Positions 1 to 11,120 of a stretch of DNA of 11,120 bases are shown piece by piece (positions within the stretch are counted from its first letter, which is position 1; every line of letters begins with the position of its first letter). Where the stretch lies: positions 1 through 11,120 of the forward strand of contig JADKKG010000114.1 in the NCBI GenBank assembly GCA_016720625.1, in the 5' to 3' direction. This stretch comes from Leptospiraceae bacterium (GTDB taxonomy: Bacteria; Spirochaetota; Leptospiria; Leptospirales; Leptospiraceae). The notes beneath the pieces were generated by a model. It was not told the DNA's origin and ran no database searches. It saw only the letters and a program-made list of their open reading frames with translations. A program made the translations under genes and the position numbers.

Positions 1-526
1 TAGCATTTGATAACCAAGCGAAGACGAAAGCCCCTAAGGTTAACACACCGAATGCGTTACCTGCCCACCAACCAAGTGAAATTGAATAAAAAAAATTCCA
101 TTCGACCATTCCATTTAAACATAGACCTAGAACTCCGATCAATGCACTAATTGTAGGCGCAATGATAATTGCAATCAGAAAGAACATACCAACATTCTTT
201 AGACTAAGCGGATATTTGTTATTCTCTAGTCTGGATTTTAAAAAATAGGCACTGAACAAAGGCTCAAGACTATTTCCGATAACAGTGGCTATTACAAAAC
301 CAATCGGTGCACCTGTTGAATAGGTTGTAAAAAATGCTCCTATACTAATTGCAGGCAAATACTTATAACCCCCGAAAAGTAAAACAGGAAGTGACAGACC
401 AGAAGGAAGCCAAATTAATGTAACATTCGATTGAATAAATGCAATTTTTAAACCGATCTTGGCAAAAAGAAAAAAAGCAATGGAAATTAAAATATTCGTG
501 ATGATAAATCTAATCTTAGAATGCAT
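1..526 (-). CDS. N-terminal ~175 aa of a MASE1-domain membrane sensor protein (partial; 3' end lies beyond window start). Likely the input domain of a histidine kinase or GGDEF/EAL protein.
   Basis: Manual translation of the minus strand from ATG at 524-526 gives an open frame to position 1 with no stop. It is absent from the ORF track only because its stop is outside the window. The sequence is MHSKIRFIITNILISIAFFLFAKIGLKIAFIQSNVTLIWLPSGLSLPVLLFGGYKYLPAISIGAFF...LGWWAGNAFGVLTLGAFVFAWL. It shows multiple hydrophobic helices plus the 'WLPSG' and 'WWaGNafGvL' motifs typical of the MASE1 membrane sensor domain. There is an in-frame TAA just upstream of the ATG, and AGGAAG lies ~15 nt upstream. 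Confidence 0.6.
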   Translation of the reverse strand, partial: MHSKIRFIITNILISIAFFLFAKIGLKIAFIQSNVTLIWLPSGLSLPVLLFGGYKYLPAISIGAFFTTYSTGAPIGFVIATVIGNSLEPLFSAYFLKSRLENNKYPLSLKNVGMFFLIAIIIAPTISALIGVLGLCLNGMVEWNFFYSISLGWWAGNAFGVLTLGAFVFAWLSNA

Positions 527-554
527 TAAATTGTCATTCAGCTTCCTTTAAGAA

Positions 555-1586
555 TTACTTTTCTTCTTCCTTGCGCTTAATCGGAAGTTTCCCCAGACTC
601 TCTCCACCTATGTTCAGAAATACACCTTCTAGTTTAGTTCCGGATAGAAGTCTTGAGAACACTTCTGCAACAGATTCTCCACCGAGGATTGCAAGGGGAG
701 CCATTGCTTCTGCAATCTTGACAAGTTGATCTTTATCGTTGAAAGACTGAAGTGCTGCGATGAAATCGGGGCTAATCGCCTTTGCCCGCTCAACCATGGA
801 TCTGACTTGCGTATCAAGCTCTTTTGCTGAGAGGTTGATATTTTGTTCCTTGAAGAATACTTCTTGATCTAATCTGGATTTGTCTCTTGTGAGTTGGACA
901 GAGTTGATCTTGTTCATCAAATCTTCTTTGTTCAACTGATTGTTTAATTTTAAGTCTTCGATAGATGCATTTGACTTTGCTCGGGTAGTTTCTAAATCTA
1001 GACGCTTTTCCAATTCTTCTTTTTCGTAACCGTAAATAGCTTTTTGGGTTGAATATTGAGATTCACTGGTTTCTTGTTTTACTTTCTCCATGAATTTTAA
1101 TATTTCTAGCTTTGACTTCTCGCGGGTAAGAGTTGTTGACTCCTGAATCAGAGTTTGTTGCGATTCTTGCATAAGCTTTGCAATGGCTGCATCTTTGATA
1201 AGAATGCCTGTAACTTCCACATCGTAGATTTTCATTTCATTTTCTGTAAAGTGGTAACCAGCATTATCTTCTCCGAGAATCGTCTTCTTTATAATGTTAA
1301 TTCCATTTGTGTAAAATTCTTCTACGCGGAAATTCTTTACAGCAGAGCGGATAACAGATCTAAATCTGTCTGTGAGAAATTTTACATAATTCTCTACATT
1401 AAACCATTTAGAAGAGTCATTTATAAAATTCAATCGGTAAGAAAGCTTAATCTGTATGCTTACAAAATCCTTTGACTCTACTTCAATTGTATCGGATACT
1501 TTGTTGTTAGCCACTCGAAGATATACATCTCGAATTAGGTTTTCATCTGTCTTTGGATTTCCTTTTGATAGAGAAAAAACTTGCAT
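555..1586 (-). CDS. Major vault protein (MVP) homolog, C-terminal part: shoulder (SPFH/band-7-like) domain, coiled-coil cap-helix and cap-ring region. Probably the downstream half of a frameshifted single mvp gene.
   Basis: ORF-track protein. 'VFSLSKGNPKTDENLIRDVYLRVANNKVSDTIEVESKDFVSIQIKLSYRLNF' aligns by eye with vertebrate MVP shoulder '[52 protein letters not shown]'. A long E/K/Q/L-rich predicted coiled coil follows (…KAIYGYEKEELEKRLDLETTRAK…). The C-terminal 'AISPDFIAALQSF…LAILGGESVAEVFSRLLSG' resembles the MVP cap-ring 'AIGPSTIRDLAVAG…LITDGSTPINLFNTAFG'. Confidence 0.75.
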   Translation of the reverse strand: MQVFSLSKGNPKTDENLIRDVYLRVANNKVSDTIEVESKDFVSIQIKLSYRLNFINDSSKWFNVENYVKFLTDRFRSVIRSAVKNFRVEEFYTNGINIIKKTILGEDNAGYHFTENEMKIYDVEVTGILIKDAAIAKLMQESQQTLIQESTTLTREKSKLEILKFMEKVKQETSESQYSTQKAIYGYEKEELEKRLDLETTRAKSNASIEDLKLNNQLNKEDLMNKINSVQLTRDKSRLDQEVFFKEQNINLSAKELDTQVRSMVERAKAISPDFIAALQSFNDKDQLVKIAEAMAPLAILGGESVAEVFSRLLSGTKLEGVFLNIGGESLGKLPIKRKEEEK

Positions 1587-1600
1587 ATCCTCGTCGAATT

Positions 1601-3046
1601 CTAAAAGGTAAGTGCTTGGTCAACTATGACTTTACGCTCTCCTGATTTGCCTACTACCATGATCGCATAACCAGCCCAAACTCCAAGAGAAACTGCGCCA
1701 TCGTATTTTGTATCAAGCGTGATATAGCGAGGAGGAGTATACTTATTTCTTCGTTGAAACGAATCGCTGGCTATTTGTTCTAATTCTTCTGCTTCTGGTT
1801 CTGATAGCAAGGAGTCAGCAACTGAAAATTCACGTTTGCTGGAAGCGGGAGAAGGTGTGGCTTGCGGTCTTGGAGGCAAAGTAGGCTTATCCGCTGGTAT
1901 TGCTTGCTTACGTAGTTCAGAATTAATTTCTATGGCACGATCATTTCCCGGAAACCAAAGACCTACTTGACGATGCTCCAAAATTCTACGAACAATTACT
2001 TCAAAGCGAGGATCAGGTAAGAACATATCGGGACCACGACGAAGTTTTACTTCACCAGTGAGACGGTTCATTACATAGCGCGCTTCTCCAAGTGGAATTG
2101 CTACAGCGTAGTGCACCTCGTTATCCTCATACTTGACGATTGCGTGTTCTTTACGTGGAAAATAAATCATTTGGTCTTTGCCAGTAAAGAAAAGCTCATC
2201 ACCTTCTTTGTATTGTGCCTCACCTTCTGTATAAGGAGCGATTACTTTGATGTAGATTCCTTTGATTTCACTTAGCTCAATCGCTCTATATTTGCGACTA
2301 CCATCTTTCTGGATAAATGTTTCCGTTGGTTCTGGAAATACAACCTCGGGACCTCGCACATAACGTTTATTACCATCTTCATCTAAGAGGATACAATATT
2401 CTAGCCGCTCAAGAGTAACTGCTTCGCGAATGTATTGGTTTCTAACATCTTTTACTACTTCAATACCAGTTGGGGGTATATAGAACGAAACCTCAGTTCC
2501 TTTAATGGTGATATGTTTCCCTAGTTTGAGTTTTGAAATATCAAATTCAGTCTGACCGGTGCTTGATTCACTTGTCTTGATGACCGCCTTATTCCAATTA
2601 TCCTTAGCGGCAGTCTCGTCATACACTCGCACAACCAAGTATTGATTCGAACGAAAATGATGTCCTTTTACTACATTTACCATTTGCCCCGACCAGAGCG
2701 GAAAAGAAATTGGTCCGGGGATATTCACTTTATGTCCCACATTGAGCTCGATGAGGCTATTCACTGTTCCAGTCTTTGGATTAGAATTGTCTTTCGCAGG
2801 ATTTTTTAGAACAAGATACCAACCTTCTGGAGATATTGCAAAGGTTTGAATGGCTCCTTCTAGAGAACATTTTTCAAAGCGCTTCGTTTTCTCATTGAAG
2901 ATGATTGGCTGATCGGTGTTGGAGAGACTTGCTTTATATGGACCAACGTAAATATTAATATTACCTTTTGTTTGGTCAGAAATAAATGCAAATTCATTTG
3001 GGGAGAGAATTAAATCCCTTTCGCGTTGTCTTTCTTCTACTGCCAT
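1601..3046 (-). CDS. Major vault protein (MVP) homolog, N-terminal part: tandem MVP (vault) repeat domains. Upstream half of the split mvp gene.
   Basis: ORF-track protein. The N-terminus 'ILSPNEFAFISDQTKGNINIYVGPYK' resembles MVP '[28 protein letters not shown]'. It has repeated ~55-aa units with the MVP-repeat signature (G-x-x-Y/F-I/F-P … E-V/I-V), e.g. 'GTEVSFYIPPTGIEVVKDV…', 'GDELFFTGKDQMIYFPRKEHAIVKY…' and 'RRGPDMFLPDPRFEVIVRRIL…'. AGGAG lies 7 nt upstream of the ATG at 3046. Confidence 0.75.
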   Translation of the reverse strand: MAVEERQRERDLILSPNEFAFISDQTKGNINIYVGPYKASLSNTDQPIIFNEKTKRFEKCSLEGAIQTFAISPEGWYLVLKNPAKDNSNPKTGTVNSLIELNVGHKVNIPGPISFPLWSGQMVNVVKGHHFRSNQYLVVRVYDETAAKDNWNKAVIKTSESSTGQTEFDISKLKLGKHITIKGTEVSFYIPPTGIEVVKDVRNQYIREAVTLERLEYCILLDEDGNKRYVRGPEVVFPEPTETFIQKDGSRKYRAIELSEIKGIYIKVIAPYTEGEAQYKEGDELFFTGKDQMIYFPRKEHAIVKYEDNEVHYAVAIPLGEARYVMNRLTGEVKLRRGPDMFLPDPRFEVIVRRILEHRQVGLWFPGNDRAIEINSELRKQAIPADKPTLPPRPQATPSPASSKREFSVADSLLSEPEAEELEQIASDSFQRRNKYTPPRYITLDTKYDGAVSLGVWAGYAIMVVGKSGERKVIVDQALTF

Positions 3047-3142
3047 AAAAATCTCCTGCTAATAGTTTATTCTGCAAATCTTAATTTGAATAATAGAACA
3101 AGCAAGTAGAAAAATATTCGTTTTATTTTTTACTTTGAGTAA
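3047..3142 (-). promoter_or_regulatory. AT-rich intergenic region between the che operon (cheY-like stop) and the vault-like gene. Likely contains the che-operon terminator and/or the vault-gene promoter and RBS.
   Basis: This is the only sizeable non-coding gap in the window (96 bp). On the minus strand it carries AGGAG 7 nt before the ATG at 3046, a possible sigma70-like TTGCTT-N16-TAAGAT, and a weak A/T-only hairpin followed by a T-run (minus strand, ~3115-3140). Confidence 0.3.
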
Positions 3143-3502
3143 CTACTCTAATTGTTTTAGCAGGTCAATCATTTCAGCATTTTTAAATGGTTTTACCATC
3201 CAGGCAGATGCTCCTGCGTCTTCTCCTTTTTTACGAATCTCAGCACTAGACTCGGTGGTCAGAATTACAATCTTCATTGATTTGCCATTGGGATGTTTTA
3301 AAACTAGTGGGACAAGTTCGATTCCAGTTTTTCCAGGCATATTTACGTCGAATATTCCAAAATCGAATTTTCCTTCTTCAATTTTTTTTAGCGCCTCATC
3401 GGCATTAGACGCTCTGACTACATCATAATCTTCGAGGCTTAGGGCAGTCTCAATTATATTCAAAACCATTGGAGAATCATCAACTATAAGAACTTTTTTC
3501 AT
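3143..3502 (-). CDS. cheY: CheY-like single-domain response regulator (receiver domain only), terminal gene of the che operon.
   Basis: 119 aa. It has the canonical receiver residues: 'LIVDDS' acidic pair, phospho-acceptor Asp in 'FDVNMPG', 'ILTT' Thr and 'VKP' Lys. AGGAAG RBS lies 4-5 nt upstream of the ATG. Confidence 0.9.
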   Translation of the reverse strand: MKKVLIVDDSPMVLNIIETALSLEDYDVVRASNADEALKKIEEGKFDFGIFDVNMPGKTGIELVPLVLKHPNGKSMKIVILTTESSAEIRKKGEDAGASAWMVKPFKNAEMIDLLKQLE

Positions 3503-3520
3503 AATACTTCCTTGCCTTTT

Positions 3521-4768
3521 TTATAAAATTGGAAATCGAACCCAAACGCATACATCTTTCATATTGTTTTCTCGTCTCATATTATTGTCTGTTGTATAAA
3601 ACGAAATACTCCCTTTGTGTAAATCAATAATTTTATTTACAACTGTCAAACCCAGACCAAATCGAAATGTTTCCTGCATGAATCTATCATCTACAACATT
3701 AGTCAATCGAAAAAATGGTTCAAAGATTTTATGCGCATTACTCTCCGTTATCCCCACTGTTCCGTCTGAATTCTTGTAGGCGGGATTCAGGATTCTGATT
3801 CCAATATCTGATTTATCATGGGAAAAGAGAATATAGATTGTATCCCCATCTTCCGAGTATTTAATTGCATTTGTTAATAATTCATCAAAGACTAGCTTCA
3901 AATTTTCTGGGCTGGCAGTAATTGATCTTCCGGCTAGGTCTCTTGGAAAATCACCCATAACTATCTTCTGATTTTTAATTCCAGCAACTGGTTTCATACC
4001 TTTTACCATTTCGGTTAATGCAGCATAGAAATCTTTCAGGGTTAATTTCCCTATATAAAAATCCTTTTCCGCTAATATGGCTTGTGTTTTAGTTAAACTA
4101 TCACTTAGTTTTAGAATTTCGTCGTAGTTGTCTTTTAATAGGTGATAAATTTTTTCATGAACTAAGTAAACTTTTTTCTCTTCATCTAATTTAGCTTTTG
4201 AAAATAAAATACTCAGTGTGCTAATAAGTGATCCGAGACCACTTCCATGGAAGAAGCTAATATTGATTTGGTGTATTAATTCATTTGCAAGAGATTCGAC
4301 TTTTCTAGTATCAAGTTCTTTTCTCCAATCAAATACTTTAATCATGGATTCGAAAACTTGTTTCTCGTTTGATTTAAAATCAGAAATCTTGGACATCACC
4401 TTTCCGTAGGTGATAGCCTTTGTTATCGCAAAATGAAAATTGAATTTATAAATTGGGTAGGAGATAATATCATACACATGATAGTTTTCCATCATTTGTA
4501 GAAACTTGTCTCCTTCCTCTCGATTGATTAATAGAATAACCAATTGAAATGGATATTCGGAAAGAATATTTCCAAGATTTTTTTGATTTTCGCTACTCGT
4601 GTCAAGAAAATCATAAACGAGTAGCCATGTGTCATCTGATTTAAGATAACTTGTGAGATTATCCATATTATCCGCTACGTTGAAAGCGTAAGTAAGATCA
4701 TCAACGTAGGTTTTCACCTGCTCTGTTATTTCTTTGTTTTGAGTATAGAGTAATATTTTATCAGACAT
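3521..4768 (-). CDS. Atypical cytoplasmic histidine-kinase-like protein: N-terminal receiver-like (probably pseudo-receiver) domain plus C-terminal HATPase_c (GHKL) catalytic domain. No canonical H-box is recognisable.
   Basis: 415 aa. The C-terminus has the N-box 'DELLTNAIKYS', a G2-like 'RFGLGLTVVNKIIDLHKGSIS' and an F-box-like 'FEPFFR', which is the classical HK ATP-binding domain. The N-terminal ~120 aa has a receiver-like beta/alpha pattern (KILLYT…WLLVYDFLD…QLVILL…DIISYP) but lacks the DD pair. No 'HExxxP' DHp motif is seen; the only candidate is the H in 'FFHGSGLGSLISTL'. Its start overlaps the cheB stop by 8 bp. Confidence 0.75.
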   Translation of the reverse strand: MSDKILLYTQNKEITEQVKTYVDDLTYAFNVADNMDNLTSYLKSDDTWLLVYDFLDTSSENQKNLGNILSEYPFQLVILLINREEGDKFLQMMENYHVYDIISYPIYKFNFHFAITKAITYGKVMSKISDFKSNEKQVFESMIKVFDWRKELDTRKVESLANELIHQINISFFHGSGLGSLISTLSILFSKAKLDEEKKVYLVHEKIYHLLKDNYDEILKLSDSLTKTQAILAEKDFYIGKLTLKDFYAALTEMVKGMKPVAGIKNQKIVMGDFPRDLAGRSITASPENLKLVFDELLTNAIKYSEDGDTIYILFSHDKSDIGIRILNPAYKNSDGTVGITESNAHKIFEPFFRLTNVVDDRFMQETFRFGLGLTVVNKIIDLHKGSISFYTTDNNMRRENNMKDVCVWVRFPIL

Positions 4769-5840
4769 ATTGGCCCGAGTAGTTTAAATAATTTTTTATC
4801 TTATTCACCATTTGAGAAAGGGGAAGTTGCTCTTCCACACCGCCGATTTCGTAAGCAACTTTCGGCATTCCGTATATGAGTGCCGACTGTTCACTTTCGC
4901 CAATGGTTCTCGATCCAGCTTCTCGCATTGCTAGTAACCCTTTTGCTCCGTCCATTCCCATGCCTGTCAAAATAACGCCAATTGTCTCACTGGCAAGTTT
5001 ATTATCAACAATGGAATGAAATAGAACATCCACAGATGGTCTATGTCCGTTAACTTTCTCGGCACGATTTAAGCCAACCGTGTGATTAATTCCATTTCTT
5101 TTATTTACCACTAAATGAAAGTCTCCCGGTGCAACGTAAATTCTTCCTGTCTGAATTATATCTTGATCTTTTGCTTCTCGCACATCAAGTCCGAAATCTT
5201 TAGAAACTCCCTTTGAAAAAGTAGCCGTAAATCCTGGCGGCATATGCTGAGTAATCACAATGCATGGAAAATCTCTAGGCACTGTAGATAGCACCTGACG
5301 TATTGCAGTCACTCCACCAGTTGATGCACCAATAGCCACAAGATTGTATTTACTCTTTCCATTTTTACCTGCCATAGGATTATTTATGAGTGGCAAGGAT
5401 TTATATTTTAATTGCTTGAGCCATCTATCAATATTGATCGTAGATGCTGTTTTAATCTTTTGAATTAATTCTGCTTGCGTTGATTCGAGAGTAATCGCTC
5501 CACCATCTGGCTTTGTGACAAAGTCAACTGCACCATATTGCATTGCTAAAATTGCTTTCTCTGAACCTTCCTCAGTTGTGCTACTGACCATGATCACAGG
5601 GATTGGATACTGAGGCATAAGCTTTCGCAAAAATTCCACTCCATCCATGCGAGGCATTTCTACATCTAGAGTTAAAACATCAGGCTCTTTTTCTGGAATC
5701 AGCTCGCTTGCTTCAAAAGGATTTGAAGCTTCTCCTACCACTTCAATACGCGGATCGGTCGTTATCATTTTTCGAATAACATTTCGAACGACTCTTTGGT
5801 CATCCACAATAAATACTTTAATTTTTTTGTTATTGTCCAT
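4761..5840 (-). CDS. cheB: Chemotaxis response regulator protein-glutamate methylesterase CheB (receiver domain plus methylesterase).
   Basis: 359 aa. N-terminal receiver ('VFIVDDQ', 'LTLDVEMPRMDG', 'TKP'). C-terminal methylesterase with the catalytic triad context 'IGASTGG' (Ser), 'QHMPPGFT' (His) and 'TGMGMDG' (Asp). Overlaps the cheA 3' end by 11 bp. Confidence 0.95.
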   Translation of the reverse strand: MDNNKKIKVFIVDDQRVVRNVIRKMITTDPRIEVVGEASNPFEASELIPEKEPDVLTLDVEMPRMDGVEFLRKLMPQYPIPVIMVSSTTEEGSEKAILAMQYGAVDFVTKPDGGAITLESTQAELIQKIKTASTINIDRWLKQLKYKSLPLINNPMAGKNGKSKYNLVAIGASTGGVTAIRQVLSTVPRDFPCIVITQHMPPGFTATFSKGVSKDFGLDVREAKDQDIIQTGRIYVAPGDFHLVVNKRNGINHTVGLNRAEKVNGHRPSVDVLFHSIVDNKLASETIGVILTGMGMDGAKGLLAMREAGSRTIGESEQSALIYGMPKVAYEIGGVEEQLPLSQMVNKIKNYLNYSGQYV

Positions 5841-7710
5841 GTGCTGCTTCGGATTCTTTGTTTTCCTTGTAGTAATTGTTAATAAAGAATCTAATGTCTA
5901 AAATCATTCCAATATTACCACTTCCCAGGATTGTGCAACCTGAAAAGCCCTTTGTTCCTTTTAAATAATCCGGAATTGGTTTAATTACAACCGATTGATT
6001 TCCTACAATTCCATCAAATACTAGGGCTAGCGAATTATTCTTATACTCCACAATAATTACATATAAAGAATTTTCGTAGTTAGAGTCCTTGTCACTTGAA
6101 TCGTGATTGAGTAATCTCTCTACGGAGACAACGGGTATTAGCTGCTCTCGGAAGCGAATTACTTTTTTGTCCTGATCGATATAGTCGATTTTCGATTCTG
6201 CCAAATTCAGTGTTTCTTTTACGTCTATTGTGGGGATAATATAGAATACCCCGTTGTAGATTACCACCATACCTTCAATGATAGCAATTGTAAGAGGTAG
6301 CTTTAGAATGAACGATGCTCCCTGGTCTTTTTTCGTCTTGATTTCAACATCGCCGTTGATCTTTGCTATATTTCTGCGAACTATATCAAGTCCTACTCCG
6401 CGTCCTGAAATATCAGTTACTCTATCACTAGTCGAGAATCCAGGTTGAAAAATAAAATCCCAAATTCTTTCGTCTTTTAGATTTTCGTCTTCTCCTTCTT
6501 TGATTAATCCGCGAGCCATTGCTTTTTTCAAAATTCTATCTCTATCTAAGCCTGCACCATCATCAGAAATAATAATCCATACTTCATTTCCTGAATGCAT
6601 TGCTTCAATCTTGATATGACCGGATTCTACTTTGCCTTTGGCTAATCTCTCTTTGCCTGTTTCCAATCCATGATCGATACAGTTGCGGATAATATGAACT
6701 AGTGGATCTGTTAATATTTCAAGGGCATTCTTATCAATTTCTGTTTCTTTTCCCGTAACTTGAAGACCCACTTTCTTTCCTGTTTTTTGTGCTAAGTCTC
6801 GAACAAGTCGTTCCATTTTATTAAACAAACCTTCGAGGGTAATCATCCTTAGCTGCAAGGATACTTCTTGTAGATTACGGACTACTTTACGTAAATAGGA
6901 AGATTGAATAGAAAAGTTCGGAAGATCTAGTTCTTTGATGTCTGGATTTTGAGTTACAAGAGATTCAGCTATCACTAGCTCACCAATCATGTCTAGTAGG
7001 TAATCTAATTTCTCTGTTTCGATTCGAATGTCTCTTTTTACTGTAGCTTGTCCATTCGAATTACCGTTATTTGCCTCTATAGTATTTTGAATCTTTTTTT
7101 CTAAAACAGGATTTTCTTGCGTGGCTCTCTCTGTAATATGTTTATCTAACTTATCAGATTCTGAATTTTCCGGAGTAGGGGCAGGTTCATTCGAAACTGG
7201 CAACTCCTTATTATCCTCTTCTGTTATTGGAGTATCAGAAAGCACAATTTTCTTTTTGAAGATTCCAAACCTAGGCTCTTCTTTCTTTGGCTCTGAAGAC
7301 TCTGCTTTTAGATTTTCTTTTATATAGAAGAGTCGGGGAATTAAAGTATCCGCCTTCTCCTTATACATTGTATCTGTTTTGTTTTCGTTGAGATGTGAAA
7401 AAATTTCATATAGAGTATCTCTTGCTTCCATGAAGAGCTGAATCATTTTTTGATCAAGAAGAGAATTGTCATTTCTTACAATCTCTAATAATGATTCTGC
7501 TGAATGCGATAGGTTTACTATCACATTGAAATTGAAAAATCCCGCATTTCCTTTGAGTGTATGGAAATAGCGGAATAATGAATTTACCTTATCTGCGTCA
7601 ACCGTTGACTCAGTTAAACTTTTTTCCAATTGGATCAGAATTGCTTCTGCTTTATCCAATATCTCTTGTGAATCAAGCACAAGGTCTGAAAGTTCATTTT
7701 CTCCAAGCAT
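5830..7710 (-). CDS. cheA: Chemotaxis histidine kinase CheA (P1-HPt, P3 dimerisation, P4 HATPase, P5 CheW-like). The P2 domain is apparently replaced by a low-complexity linker.
   Basis: 626 aa. HPt motif 'FHTLKGNAGFF' with the phospho-His at about residue 50. Dimerisation segment 'LDYLLDMIGELVIAESLV'. Kinase boxes 'HIIRNCIDHGLE', 'DDGAGLD' and 'GRGVGLDIV'. C-terminal CheW-like domain. Residues ~133-226 are an E/K/P/S/N-rich low-complexity stretch with no P2-like fold signature. Confidence 0.95.
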   Translation of the reverse strand: MLGENELSDLVLDSQEILDKAEAILIQLEKSLTESTVDADKVNSLFRYFHTLKGNAGFFNFNVIVNLSHSAESLLEIVRNDNSLLDQKMIQLFMEARDTLYEIFSHLNENKTDTMYKEKADTLIPRLFYIKENLKAESSEPKKEEPRFGIFKKKIVLSDTPITEEDNKELPVSNEPAPTPENSESDKLDKHITERATQENPVLEKKIQNTIEANNGNSNGQATVKRDIRIETEKLDYLLDMIGELVIAESLVTQNPDIKELDLPNFSIQSSYLRKVVRNLQEVSLQLRMITLEGLFNKMERLVRDLAQKTGKKVGLQVTGKETEIDKNALEILTDPLVHIIRNCIDHGLETGKERLAKGKVESGHIKIEAMHSGNEVWIIISDDGAGLDRDRILKKAMARGLIKEGEDENLKDERIWDFIFQPGFSTSDRVTDISGRGVGLDIVRRNIAKINGDVEIKTKKDQGASFILKLPLTIAIIEGMVVIYNGVFYIIPTIDVKETLNLAESKIDYIDQDKKVIRFREQLIPVVSVERLLNHDSSDKDSNYENSLYVIIVEYKNNSLALVFDGIVGNQSVVIKPIPDYLKGTKGFSGCTILGSGNIGMILDIRFFINNYYKENKESEAAHGQ

Positions 7711-7718
7711 TATAGAGC

Positions 7719-8207
7719 CTAAGCAATTCCTTTTACATCTTTCTCATGAATAAACTTATTCAGGTCGATCAATATTTTCAATGTATCGCCTGACTTTCCA
7801 ATGGAATCGACGAATCGTTCCATATTTGCTTCTTCAAATCCTGGTGAGGGCTCAATACAATCTTTTGGAATTTTTAAAACTTCTTTAACTCCATCGACGA
7901 TAAGCCCTGCACTTAGATTGTTAAAATTCATAATCAATATGCAGGTGAATTCGGTATAGTCTATCTTGGGTAAACCGAATCTTAGCCGCACATCAATTAC
8001 GGGAATAATCTTCCCTCGAAGGTTGATTACTCCCTTAACATATTCTGGTAAGTTTGGAACAAAAGTCACAGGTTGAAACGCAATGATTTCAATCAAGTAA
8101 CGAATCTCTATACCATACTCTCTTCCATCGATGAAAAAGATGATATAGAGATCCTCCATAGTATCTTCAGATTCTTCTAATTGTTCTTCTTCAAATGTCG
8201 TTACCAT
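7719..8207 (-). CDS. cheW: Chemotaxis coupling protein CheW.
   Basis: 162 aa. The CheW-like domain pattern is seen throughout (…IEIRYLIEIIAFQPVTFVPNLPEYVKGVINLRGKIIPVIDVRLRFG…LIVDGVKEVLKIP). It sits between the MCP and cheA with 12-bp and 8-bp gaps. Confidence 0.9.
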   Translation of the reverse strand: MVTTFEEEQLEESEDTMEDLYIIFFIDGREYGIEIRYLIEIIAFQPVTFVPNLPEYVKGVINLRGKIIPVIDVRLRFGLPKIDYTEFTCILIMNFNNLSAGLIVDGVKEVLKIPKDCIEPSPGFEEANMERFVDSIGKSGDTLKILIDLNKFIHEKDVKGIA

Positions 8208-8219
8208 ACACTTTACTCC

Positions 8220-11120
8220 TTACTTCAAATCAATTTTTTTCTTTCCGCCAGATTGTTGGTCTCTTCTTTTATCATCTTTTGATTTCTTAATTTGAAATCT
8301 TTTTACCATTGTTTGGAATGCTTCTGCTTGGCTAGACAACTCAAGACTAGCTGCTGAGCTTTCTTCTGCTGTAGCAGCAGCACTCATTGTCACCTGTGAA
8401 ATCTGATTGATACCAGTTGTAGTCTCTACGACCGACGAAGACTGCTCAATCGAAGCACTCGCGATGTCTTTCACTAGCTCTGTAACATCTACAACACCAG
8501 CTGTCATCTTATTCAATTCGTTTGCAGTTCTTCCCGCAATGTCCATACCAGAGCGAACTGTTTTAATCGAGCCTTCAATCATCTTAGTGGTTTCTTTCGC
8601 AGCATTCGCGCTACGAGAAGCGAGATTACGAACTTCTTCCGCCACCACGTTAAATCCTTTTCCATGTTGACCTGCACGGGCAGCTTCCACCGCAGCGTTT
8701 AATGCGAGTATATTTGTTTGGAATGCGATTGCATCAATTTCTTTGATAATCTTCGCAATGTTTTCGGAAGTTTCACTGATTTCTTCCATCGCTTTGAGCA
8801 TTCCCTTCATTTCGTTATTACTAGAAACTGCTTGGTCTTTCACGTTCATAGCTTGGTCACTTGCGTCCTTCGCATTCTTCGCGTTATCCTTAGCTTTGAG
8901 TTCGATTACTGCCAGCGTTGAAGTAATCTCTTCTACGCTACTAGCTTGTTCGTTTGATCCTTGCGAGAGAGATTGGCTGGAGTCAGCCACTTGTCTAGAG
9001 CTAATGAGGATTTGATCCGAAGCATTGATGATTTCACCAATGAGCTCATTGAAGGAATCAACGATGAGAGTGAGTGCTTTTTTAATCTCAGCGAAATCTC
9101 CCATAAAGTCTTTTGTTACTTCAACAGTTAAGTCACCTGCTGACATAGAAGAGAGGATACGCGAAATTTCCCCCACATAATCGTTTAACGTTACCAGACT
9201 TGTATTAAGAGCAGTCTTAATAGTAGCATGATCTCCCTTGTAATCACCGAGCATTCTAGCTTTTAAGTTTCCTTTAGACAATTCTAGCAACACTGCGGAA
9301 GCTTCTTGCACTGGAAGGATAACAGCGTCTAATGTGTTGTTTACCCCATCCACAATCTTACGGAAGTCACCTTGGTGTTTGGTCGCATCTGCACGAGTTG
9401 CAAGCTTACCATCAATAGCCGCTTTCGCAAGCATACCTGCATCAGCCACAAGTGCGTTTACGTTTTCAATACAACGATTAAGGTTGTTCTTTAGAGTGTT
9501 AAAATCCCCATTATAAGTATCCGTAATTTGATTTGGAATTGCACCGCGAGAAATTCTATCTACATAATCAGCAGCAACGTTAAGAGGACCAATCACCGAG
9601 TCTAATGTCTGATTAACTCCTTCCACAATCTTACGATAGTCGCCTTGGTGTTTAGTAGCATCAGCACGAGTTGCAAGCTTACCTTCGATAGCTGCTTTCG
9701 CAAGCATACCGGCATCAGCCACAAGAGCATTTACATTATCAATTGCGTTGTTTAAGTTGTTTTTAATTGTGTTAAAGTCTCCATTGTAAGTATCCGTAAT
9801 CTTAGTCGGAATAGCCCCGCGGGAAATTTTATCTACATAATCCGCGGCAACATTAAGAGGACCTATCACAGAGTCTAACGTCTGGTTAACCCCTTCTACA
9901 ATCTTACGATAATCGCCTTGGTGTTTAGTAGCATCAGCGCGAGTTGCAAGTTTACCTTCTACTGCTGCTTTCGCAAGCATACCGGCATCAGCCACAAGTG
10001 CGTTTACATTATCAATCGCATTGTTTAAGTTGTTCTTAAGAACGTTGAAATCACCGTTGTAAGTGTCAGTAATTTTAGCAGGAATAGCACCACGAGAGAT
10101 TTTATCTACGTAATCAGCAGCAACATTGAGAGGACCGATCACAGAGTCTAACGTCTGATTAACCCCTTCCACAATTTTACGATAGTCGCCTTGGTGTTTA
10201 GTTGCATCCGCACGTGTTGCGAGCTTACCTTCAATAGCTGCTTTCGCGAGCATACCGGCATCAGCCACAAGTGCGTTTACATTATCAATCGCATTGTTTA
10301 AGTTGTTCTTGATAACATTAAAGTCACCGTTATAAGTATCGCTGATCTTTTCAGGGATAGCACCACGAGAGATTTTATCAACATAATCAGCAGCAACGTT
10401 GAGAGGACCGATTACCGAGTCTAACGTCTGATTAACCCCTTCTACAATTCTACGATAGTCACCTTGGTGTTTAGTAGCATCAGCACGTGTTGCAAGCTTA
10501 CCTTCTACTGCTGCTTTCGCAAGCATACCGGCATCAGAGACGAGGTTGCCGATATTATTTTTCATTAGCATCAACCACTCATGAATTTGATCTTGTTCGG
10601 AAGCTTTGTTCATTGTCGCAGTCAAATCACCATTCGATATCTTATTCACATAGGCTACAAGATCAGTAAGCCACAAATGAACTCCGTTGACGGCATCTTT
10701 CATTTTTTGATGATCACCACGACATTCGATCTCCATTCTTTCGCGAAGATTTCCGCCTCTAATAAGTCTTAATACTCTATTTCCTTCCCCTATTGGAATT
10801 AGAATCGCATCGAGCATTGTGTTTACGCCAATTAAAACATCTGCATAGGCACCTTTGAATTGTTCTGGTTTTCCTCTTTCATCTAACATACCTGCTTTAG
10901 AGGCTTCTGTAAGACGAAGTAATTCTTTTTGTAAGGCTTGCAAGACTTGCATAACAGTGATTAAACTCTTTGAGAGTAAATCATTTTCAGAGCGAACATT
11001 TACTTTGACGGAGAGATTTCCTTCAGAAATGGCAACTGCTGCCTCTGCTTGTTGGTTAATCGCATTGATCGCCAAATTGAGGTTATTCTTTAGAGTGTTG
11101 AAATCGCCATTATACGTATC
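8220..11120 (-). CDS. mcp: Methyl-accepting chemotaxis protein with a very long tandem poly-HAMP array and a C-terminal MCP signalling domain (partial; the N-terminus lies beyond the window end).
   Basis: The ORF is open to the window edge. The track's 'M' at 11075 is a TTG inside a HAMP unit, not the real start. The signalling domain shows the hallmark '[37 protein letters not shown]'. Candidate methylation sites are 'SSVEEITST' and 'SIEQSSS'. Upstream are at least ~14 consecutive HAMP-like units (AS1-connector-AS2, e.g. '[18 protein letters not shown]…[19 protein letters not shown]' and '[25 protein letters not shown]'). No transmembrane segment falls in the in-window part. Confidence 0.95.
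9171..10535 (-). repeat. Tandem 273-bp (91-aa) direct repeats inside the MCP coding sequence. There are four near-identical protein copies plus one half-diverged copy, and each unit encodes two HAMP domains (di-HAMP module). More diverged HAMP units continue to the window end.
   Basis: The marker 'gaggacc…tctaa(t/c)gtctg(a/g)ttaac' recurs at 9584, 9857, 10130 and 10403, an exact 273-bp period. The proteins are ~95% identical ([10 protein letters not shown][IV][80 protein letters not shown]). DNA copies are only ~85-90% identical by eye, mostly at synonymous positions. Confidence 0.9.

Follow-up and report, generated by a model that had tools for sequence, protein, structure and literature searches.

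A Leptospiraceae chemoreceptor gene with tandem di-HAMP repeats and a predicted poly-HAMP stalk

What kind of receptor is encoded by a chemotaxis gene that carries tandem 273-bp repeats ahead of its signalling domain, and what might such repeats do? The question is raised by a stretch of 11,120 nucleotides from a Leptospiraceae bacterium (GenBank assembly GCA_016720625.1, contig JADKKG010000114.1; the whole stretch is called the window below), in which every sizeable open reading frame (ORF) lies on the minus strand, the strand of all window features given here. One frame runs open from a stop codon at 8220 as far as the edge of the window (8220..11120, 2901 nt, 966 codons and the stop) and encodes the 3' part of a methyl-accepting chemotaxis protein (MCP), the 5' end lying outside the window. 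Its product matches the Pfam family HAMP_2 (PF18947) in 8 stretches with 595 bits (E = 2e-183) and the Pfam signalling domain MCPsignal at residues 754-911 (E = 9e-44), and an initial annotation of the window, made from the letters alone, had described it as a giant poly-HAMP chemoreceptor. We find that the gene is the head of a cheW-cheA-cheB operon, and our favoured reading, to which we give a probability of about 0.72, is that it encodes a membrane-bound Leptospiraceae MCP with a poly-HAMP cytoplasmic stalk relaying a signal to a standard hairpin.

Di-HAMP repeats and the HAMP count

Tandem Repeats Finder (TRF) reports a single array at 9318..10537 with a period of 273, 4.5 copies, 85% matches, 0% indels and a score of 1659, which confirms the repeat described initially. 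This array, called array B below (9318..10538, residues 195-601 of the window protein), has a protein period of 91 residues (348 self-matches at lag 91) and a fixed module length of exactly 273 bp (91 aa) without indels, and its copies are recognised by a hidden Markov model (HMM) of the unit with 78-93 bits and, unit by unit, by Pfam HAMP_2. The 91-residue unit is made of a first half of 44 and a second half of 47 residues; the second half alone matches positions 23-67 of HAMP_2 with 68.6 bits and the first half matches positions 1-22 with 35.5 bits. By these half-unit matches, the Pfam model covers the second helix (AS2) of a non-canonical HAMP together with an entire canonical HAMP. Judged by its profile matches, one 273-bp repeat is one di-HAMP, in which a non-canonical HAMP ('group A') precedes a canonical one ('group B'), and the initial annotation was right to call each repeat a di-HAMP module. 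Custom HMMs of type A and type B, built from the two halves of the unit and iterated over 120 homologues (the best 120 of the 7996 proteins found by a search at E <= 1e-20), return a strict ABAB order inside array B and inside a second array, array A, described below.

The window holds 15 complete HAMP-like units, where at least ~14 had first been counted, and the last helix of a sixteenth that is cut by the edge. Profile matches back 13 of the 15, and 12 exceed the HAMP_2 gathering threshold (24.3 bits). Scores of single units against this model range from 32.7 to 68.6 bits, except that units 14, 15 and 17 (numbered along the full-length protein) are under the threshold or without a match. 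Unit 15 reaches only 19.1 bits with HAMP_2 but 39 bits with the custom type A HMM, and units 14 and 17, whose HMM matches are weak or missing, are otherwise backed by a regular helix-loop-helix periodicity. A generic coiled-coil repeat, the alternative that had been named in case HAMP models should fail to score the units, is ruled out by the HAMP_2 scores. The glycine in each of the motifs VIGPL, NGDF and QGDY is invariant across the homologue alignment. Against the AskA poly-HAMP crystal structure (9trk, E = 8.5e-11) the repeat keeps its register for more than two modules, and a weak alignment is obtained with an Aer2 structure (3vol). An AlphaFold2 (AF2) monomer model of window residues 1-290, of low confidence (predicted local distance difference test, pLDDT, 64; predicted template modelling score, pTM, 0.30), consists of seven helices of 26-32 residues joined by loops of 13-15 residues, and in this low-confidence model (pLDDT 64) the HAMP periodicity is continuous through the spacer that separates the two arrays.

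The reconstructed full-length receptor, its copy number and its history

The exact CheW protein encoded next to the receptor was found on 17 public contigs, and six contigs, L001-L006, were among those compared with the window. L001 (GCA_016718635.1, JADKCW010000009.1) belongs to a metagenome-assembled genome (MAG) that NCBI annotates as a Leptospiraceae bacterium. It is 98.0% identical to positions 1..10574 of the reverse-complemented window, with three 1-nt gaps, and the receptor part of the window is collinear with L001 7089..9988. Gene calling in L001 splits the receptor (4737..9988) into two genes, of 938 and 818 aa, at a 1-base deletion in a TT run that is intact in the window; joining L001 4737..7088 to the window gives a single frame of 1750 aa, in which a window residue number equals the full-length number minus 784. 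From this 98%-identical contig we infer a whole receptor of ~1750 aa with ~28 HAMPs, which would be ordered as a first hydrophobic segment (TM1), a four-helix-bundle (4HB) sensor, a second hydrophobic segment (TM2), a membrane-proximal HAMP, six di-HAMPs, a spacer of four HAMPs, 4.5 di-HAMPs, two further HAMPs and the signalling hairpin. The initial annotation had expected the gene to continue upstream of the window, and L001 indeed adds six di-HAMPs, the membrane HAMP and the 4HB sensor.

In the part taken from L001, the two hydrophobic segments lie near residues 7 and 191 of the full-length protein, the putative periplasmic sensor matches 4HB_MCP_1 with 56 bits and TarH with 26 bits, and the membrane-proximal HAMP (HAMP1) matches Pfam HAMP with 80 bits and has DEIG at the junction of its connector and AS2, an instance of the DExG motif that is the mark of membrane-coupled HAMPs. 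Array A, recognised in L001 with the custom HMMs, comprises the six di-HAMPs at full-length residues 263-807, and the C-terminal helix (AS2) of its last canonical HAMP is what the window edge retains (11052..11120, window residues 1-23), with a motif common to the array B units. It had been proposed that the repeats of array B run on past the edge, on the ground of a 31-mer found at 9491..9521. This 31-mer and the final 31 nt of the window agree at 28 of 31 positions, the edge encodes DTYNGDFN, and both gene and repeats do continue; what continues, however, belongs to the second array, beyond a spacer of 171 aa. This non-repetitive spacer (10539..11051, window residues 24-194, full-length residues 808-978) contains four HAMP-like units, 14 to 17. 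With the custom HMMs, unit 15 scores 39 bits as type A, unit 16 31 bits as type B and unit 17 a weak 15.6 bits, and with Pfam, unit 14 scores 13 bits against HAMP, unit 16 34 bits against HAMP_2 and unit 17 has no match.

Array B occupies full-length residues 978-1385 by TRF and HMMs, and is followed by two divergent HAMPs of canonical type, units 27 and 28 (9045..9317, window residues 602-692, full-length 1387-1475), which score 38.7 and 32.7 bits with HAMP_2 and 45.5 and 38.0 bits with the custom type B HMM. The array adjoins the signalling domain, since the last HAMP ends near residue 692 and the MCPsignal match begins at residue 754. The signalling hairpin and a basic C-terminal tail fill the rest of the gene (8223..9044, residues 693-966), with arms of ~125 aa each, a tip motif that starts near residue 811 and two methylation-consensus sites at residues 726 and 915. 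When genome contigs were searched for orthologues of other species with the sensor domain as query, one truncated Leptospiraceae contig was all that came back.

A receptor built of near-identical 273-bp units invites the suspicion that its repeat number is an artefact of assembly, through collapse or expansion of the units, and the worry voiced in the initial annotation was justified. The short-read contigs L002, L004, L005 and L006, which come from the same population, end inside or beside the array. L003, a short-read metagenome contig, encodes (3839..6673) a complete receptor of 944 aa, 806 codons fewer than the full-length protein, which tracks the gene to nt 1095 and resumes at nt 3468, with 2418 nt removed in frame; the two parts meet within 65 nt of exactly repeated sequence (gene nt 1039-1103 = 3456-3520, in unit A1 and at the boundary of units B2 and B3). 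This 944-aa form is probably the result of a collapse in a de Bruijn graph, possibly a real recombinant or deletion allele, and a further homologue, P0019, likewise is without the spacer. For the window itself the evidence is of another kind. The units are distinguishable, differing at 11-19% of positions, and the independent assembly L001 is collinear through all of array B with no unit-sized gap, so that the copy number of array B is equal in the two across the collinear 10.5-kb alignment. Every unit moreover pairs with its positional counterpart in L001 (97-98% identical, against 73-92% to other units), which makes the unit number of array B reproducible and means that the repeats were there before the two strains split. 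The window and L001 differ by three indels, all of them of 1 nt and in homopolymers, and each interrupts another gene (the receptor and a kinase-like gene in L001, a vault-like gene in the window). This is an error pattern of the long-read type, which suggests that, for both assemblies, single reads were able to span the arrays. An artefactual repeat number in the window is on balance very improbable, and for array B we reject it in view of the collinearity with L001 and the positional pairing of the units. It is nevertheless clear that poly-HAMP genes are mangled in metagenome assemblies, by breaks in the array, by the jump across the 65-nt repeat and by homopolymer frameshifts, and such damage matters to anyone deriving HAMP counts or receptor lengths from MAGs.

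Copy number was also to be compared across strains, and here the picture is one of agreement between the window and L001 and of difference further out. In a sister lineage (P0009, P0010, P0015 and P0016) the sensor is 88%, the spacer 98% and the C-terminus 97% identical, the array has fewer standard units, and array A contains an extra HAMP_N3-like insert; in P0016 and P0010 this non-repeat insert of HAMP_N3-like units lies at residues ~440-560. The insert and the lower unit number indicate that the evolution of these arrays involves the uptake of other HAMP cassettes and not unit number alone, and the differences of the sister lineage show that module number and composition vary between related lineages, in line with the literature.

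The initial annotation put the repeats at ~95% identity in protein and 85-90% in DNA and concluded that each copy is under purifying selection and not recent. The pattern holds, with figures that were slightly generous: pairwise identity among the array B copies is 0.81-0.89 in nucleotides and 0.81-0.96 in amino acids (0.87-0.96 among the four full copies). By the Nei-Gojobori method, synonymous divergence (dS) is 0.51-1.05, non-synonymous divergence (dN) 0.02-0.10 and dN/dS 0.02-0.13, and 74 of the 122 variable columns among ten units are third codon positions. The conclusion drawn from them stands, with dS of 0.5-1.05, dN/dS of at most 0.13 and positional orthologues at 97-98%. Strong divergence between the modules at synonymous sites makes the amplification old and not recent, and saturated synonymous sites beside a conserved protein argue that every module is functionally constrained and not a product of recent slippage.

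Two other histories were considered. Array B is not a block duplicate of array A, as the units of the two arrays do not correspond one to one in the identity matrix of the ten full units. Frequent gene conversion as the cause of the likeness in protein is rejected because conversion would also homogenise synonymous sites, which is not seen: a GENECONV-style permutation test within L001 gives a modest mosaic signal only (A2-A4, p = 0.027; B1-B2, p = 0.037), a stronger A4-B4 run is present only in the chimeric L001-plus-window sequence, and the longest exact tracts common to units are 68 nt. On codon-level evidence, then, the di-HAMP modules are old duplicates, each held near-constant in protein by purifying selection: the array was amplified long ago, every unit has since been under strong purifying selection, and short stretches have been exchanged now and then. 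A poly-HAMP array can therefore be old, with synonymous sites saturated and the protein held at ~90-95% identity.

A separate observation concerns the other end of the gene. The last 1098 nt (window 8223..9320) differ from L001 at 1 site (0.09%), against ~2.2% elsewhere in the 10.5-kb alignment, and paralogous MCPs of the same cluster are ~80% identical in nucleotides over this segment. The near-identity of the signalling-domain segment in the window and L001 could reflect a recent exchange or a sweep.

Relay, spacer or sensor

The mechanism that we favour follows published poly-HAMP models step by step. A ligand bound by the periplasmic four-helix bundle would displace TM2; the first HAMP, with its DExG motif, would turn the movement of TM2 into a helix rotation or packing change; and this change would be passed down a dimeric rod in which canonical HAMPs (x-da) alternate with non-canonical ones (da-x), every di-HAMP being a toggle complete in itself that gives the signal back its original sense. 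The last HAMP would set the state of the hairpin and so control CheA through CheW, while CheB, together with a CheR that was not seen, would adjust receptor methylation. The array itself would have grown by in-register intragenic duplication of whole di-HAMP units. As one DNA repeat is one di-HAMP, in-register gain or loss of units should alter the length of the stalk and not HAMP parity. The initial annotation had suggested that repeat-number variation would change both rod length and signal polarity, and only the former survives, because each repeat is a HAMP pair that, in the published model, restores the sense of rotation, whereas gain or loss of whole units does change length.

Several points weigh against this relay. 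The 5' 2.35 kb, and with them the count of array A, come from a 98%-identical relative and not from the window's own genome, and units 14 and 17 are not significant with the Pfam HAMP models. The strict alternation of types A and B is interrupted four times (both unit 14 and unit 17 stand between B and A, units 27 and 28 are both B, and HAMP1 precedes A), and the bookkeeping of one sign change per HAMP may fail there. The AF2 monomer shows the helix-connector periodicity expected of a HAMP (two helices per chain, a connector of ~14 residues), but its confidence is low, with a pLDDT of 64 and a pTM of 0.30, and the parallel four-helix dimer is a predicted fold. The ligand, the output behaviour and the relay are all inferred. 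Finally, arrays of the chemoreceptor type are predicted to be stable, with little difference between isolated and embedded domains (Coles et al. 2026, PMC13446029), a prediction that fits a rigid rod as well as a chain of switches and keeps the former a live alternative.

According to this alternative the poly-HAMP stretch serves chiefly as a rigid spacer or ruler, setting the distance from the membrane to the CheA/CheW layer, or its reach to a particular place in a very thin cell, and it moves as a whole rod instead of as a chain of individual two-state switches. Besides the predicted stable conformations and the minimal difference between isolated and embedded domains, it would account for units that are near-identical in protein despite a dS of 0.5-1.0, as expected if a uniform packing geometry matters, for the variation of unit number among lineages, and for the tracking of array height by receptor length in electron cryotomography. 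A plain coiled coil, however, would be a cheaper spacer than HAMP bundles, the alternation of non-canonical and canonical HAMPs that a toggle needs is strictly kept within both arrays, and different HAMP conformers give opposite outputs in Aer2-Tar chimeras. We consider a mainly structural stalk unlikely, if still to be taken seriously.

The stalk may have a further part to play, and here the spacer deserves attention. Its second half (10539..10799, residues 108-194) is a single-copy module of two HAMP-like units with the pattern C.GDH ... GVH.W ... ASE.DQIHEW; the pair is not amplified, and its Cys, His and Trp residues are invariant. Thirty-six sequences (the reconstructed protein and 35 of the 120 listed homologues) retain the module with 50-98% identity; their sensors differ, and the position of the module within the array varies among them. 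In a library of 1.84 billion cluster representatives it matches 194 at E <= 1e-10 and 95 at E <= 1e-30, usually once per protein. A Pfam scan assigns it no family of its own, and a PDB search gave no informative match and no solved relative. The interruption of arrays is not mentioned in Coles et al. 2026, and this module may be a detail new to the literature.

Such a module suggests that the stalk could itself be an input device, the module or the whole rod sensing a cytoplasmic cue (redox, metal, a partner protein, temperature or osmolarity, for example) and integrating it with the periplasmic signal. That an unamplified unit retains invariant C, H and W in 36 sequences despite differing sensors and array positions, that it recurs in 194 representatives mostly once per protein, and that most described poly-HAMP arrays have no upstream input domain, so that the source of their input has already been questioned, all speak for this idea. 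The module matches no cofactor-binding or metal-binding family, on the other hand, and its conserved residues could be mere packing residues at the junction of two array types. We regard a sensing stalk as quite improbable, and a role of the module as cytoplasmic input or docking site as unlikely. A conserved, unamplified, Cys/His-bearing HAMP pair embedded in many arrays may nonetheless be of use to specialists.

The length of the stalk can be approximated from helix geometry, a helix of 26-32 residues spanning two stacked HAMPs and giving ~2.0-2.4 nm per HAMP. Twenty-eight HAMPs would then measure 55-67 nm. With a further 17.5 nm, the distance between baseplate and domain boundary for a signalling domain with arms of ~125 aa, the CheA/CheW layer would sit roughly 70-85 nm away from the membrane, compared with a height of 25 nm for normal arrays and of 35-40 nm for the tall ones of Aer2. 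The full combination of a membrane-anchored receptor of ~28 HAMPs, a CheA/CheW layer ~70-85 nm deep and a module that serves as second sensor or docking site is speculative, and we hold it to be doubtful. If it were true, the layer at 70-85 nm would be two to three times deeper than in any imaged array and would take up a large share of the width of a thin spirochaete, an array architecture not yet seen, and the relay rod would also be a second sensor, which would help to explain where poly-HAMP arrays get their input.

Gene neighbourhood and related systems

Directly downstream of the receptor gene lies cheW (7719..8207; Pfam CheW, E = 3e-32), followed by cheA (5830..7710), which has Hpt, dimerisation, HATPase_c and CheW-like domains in Pfam and matches NCBIfam CheA with E = 5e-105, under the curated cutoff of that family, and by cheB (4761..5840), with a receiver and a methylesterase domain (Pfam CheB_methylest, E = 4.5e-58). 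A cheR is missing both from the window and from the 10 kb of L001 on either side of cheW. In the same operon direction follow a histidine-kinase-like protein of 415 aa (3521..4768; HATPase_c only, by Pfam and NCBIfam) and a single-domain receiver of 119 aa (3143..3502; Pfam and NCBIfam). In the former, HATPase_c is C-terminal and no HisKA/DHp or sensor domain is recognisable; its L001 copy is split by a homopolymer indel (T6 vs T5 at window 3715), and it may be a second kinase tied to the same che pathway.

Beyond the che genes lies a gene for a protein like the major vault protein (window 555..3046, L001 15161..17653). In L001 and L002 this protein has 830 aa and matches Vault_3, MVP_shoulder and Band_7/SPFH; in the window the loss of 1 nt from a GG run at ~1622 splits it into ORFs of 481 and 343 aa, which is either a sequencing error or the sign of a pseudogene. 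The same cluster contains further HAMP_2 chemoreceptors and a second cheW (L001 1..4430; L003 1..3532). One neighbouring receptor in L001 is a 683-aa HAMP-PAS-diHAMP-MCPsignal protein of Aer2-like architecture, and another receptor of the cluster, of at least 1007 aa, combines 4HB, HAMP, HAMP_N3 and HAMP_2.

The 120 best homologues are almost all MCPs of 1100-1690 aa with HAMP_2, with up to 28 detectable units and a median of 19, and their sources include Limnobacter, Methylomonas, Bryobacteraceae, Desulfobacterales and Leptospiraceae. More than 100 of the MCPs listed have 1200-1690 aa, with 19-28 units, and such homologues occur in many phyla. By its predicted length the receptor is near the upper end of this family and not an outlier. 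When the reconstructed full protein and the L003 form are added to the 120, two N-terminal hydrophobic segments are present in 49 of 122 sequences, so membrane-anchored poly-HAMP receptors are common. The frequency of long arrays that are membrane-anchored and bear a sensor offers specialists a system with a defined input.

Poly-HAMP receptors were first surveyed by Dunin-Horkawicz and Lupas (2010), and the initial statement that they are known from a few receptors does not hold, given an existing Pfam model, a 2026 paper with structures and more than 100 homologous MCPs listed. That paper (Coles et al. 2026, Protein Sci, PMC13446029) presents crystal structures of the AskA array, more than 200 models and the 31-HAMP AskB, reports chemoreceptor poly-HAMP arrays of 'dozens' of HAMPs with modules near-identical within an array, describes the di-HAMP toggle, intragenic amplification and related arrays of differing module number, and reports that the kinase-type and chemoreceptor-type HAMP groups arose independently. 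The receptor is accordingly a large membrane-anchored member of a known and widespread poly-HAMP family and not a new type of system, and the initial interpretation is partly supported, being largely right, overstated in novelty and wrong on polarity.

The closest likeness is to the chemoreceptor poly-HAMP arrays of groups A and B, which share non-canonical plus canonical di-HAMP modules of fixed period, near-identical in protein, dozens of HAMPs and a position directly upstream of the methyl-accepting domain. The arrays of the 2026 paper are soluble and typically have no upstream input, whereas here, as seen through L001, there is a TM-4HB-TM sensor with a DExG HAMP; in further contrast to those described, the present array is split by a conserved non-repeat spacer of four HAMPs (98% identical in the orthologues P0009, P0010, P0015 and P0016), and its synonymous sites have diverged strongly from module to module. 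Aer2 of Pseudomonas aeruginosa and Vibrio (PDB 3LNR, 3VOL), a soluble multi-HAMP receptor with a PAS-haem sensor, resembles the receptor in its alternating conformers of HAMP1 and HAMP2 type and in a di-HAMP that directly precedes a signalling domain of similar length, the Aer2 HAMP2 falling in group A, but it has five diverse HAMPs, the PAS-haem sensor and no repeats. The best NCBIfam match of the receptor is the Aer2 model NF041847, and membership is ruled out by a score of 452.6 bits against a cutoff of 1200 and by the lack of any PAS match in the window receptor protein or the N-terminal part from L001. Arrays of the kinase type (AskA and AskB of Myxococcus and the fungal group III hybrid histidine kinases, the latter with repeats of ~92 aa) have a similar period of ~91-92 aa and the same linker lengths between HAMPs, and AskB has 31 HAMPs against the 28 predicted here. 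Their output is GAF-DHp-CA-REC and their HAMPs belong to groups C and D, whereas the present receptor has an MCP hairpin and groups A and B, and since its output is MCPsignal, with no kinase domains in the receptor, kinase-type membership is ruled out as well. Receptors of the Tar/Tsr type with a 4HB sensor, finally, share the layout of TM1, sensor, TM2, DExG HAMP and hairpin, with arms of ~125 aa, methylation sites and adjacent cheW, cheA and cheB, and the receptor described here differs from them in ~27 extra HAMPs and in a basic C-terminal tail in place of an NWETF-type pentapeptide.

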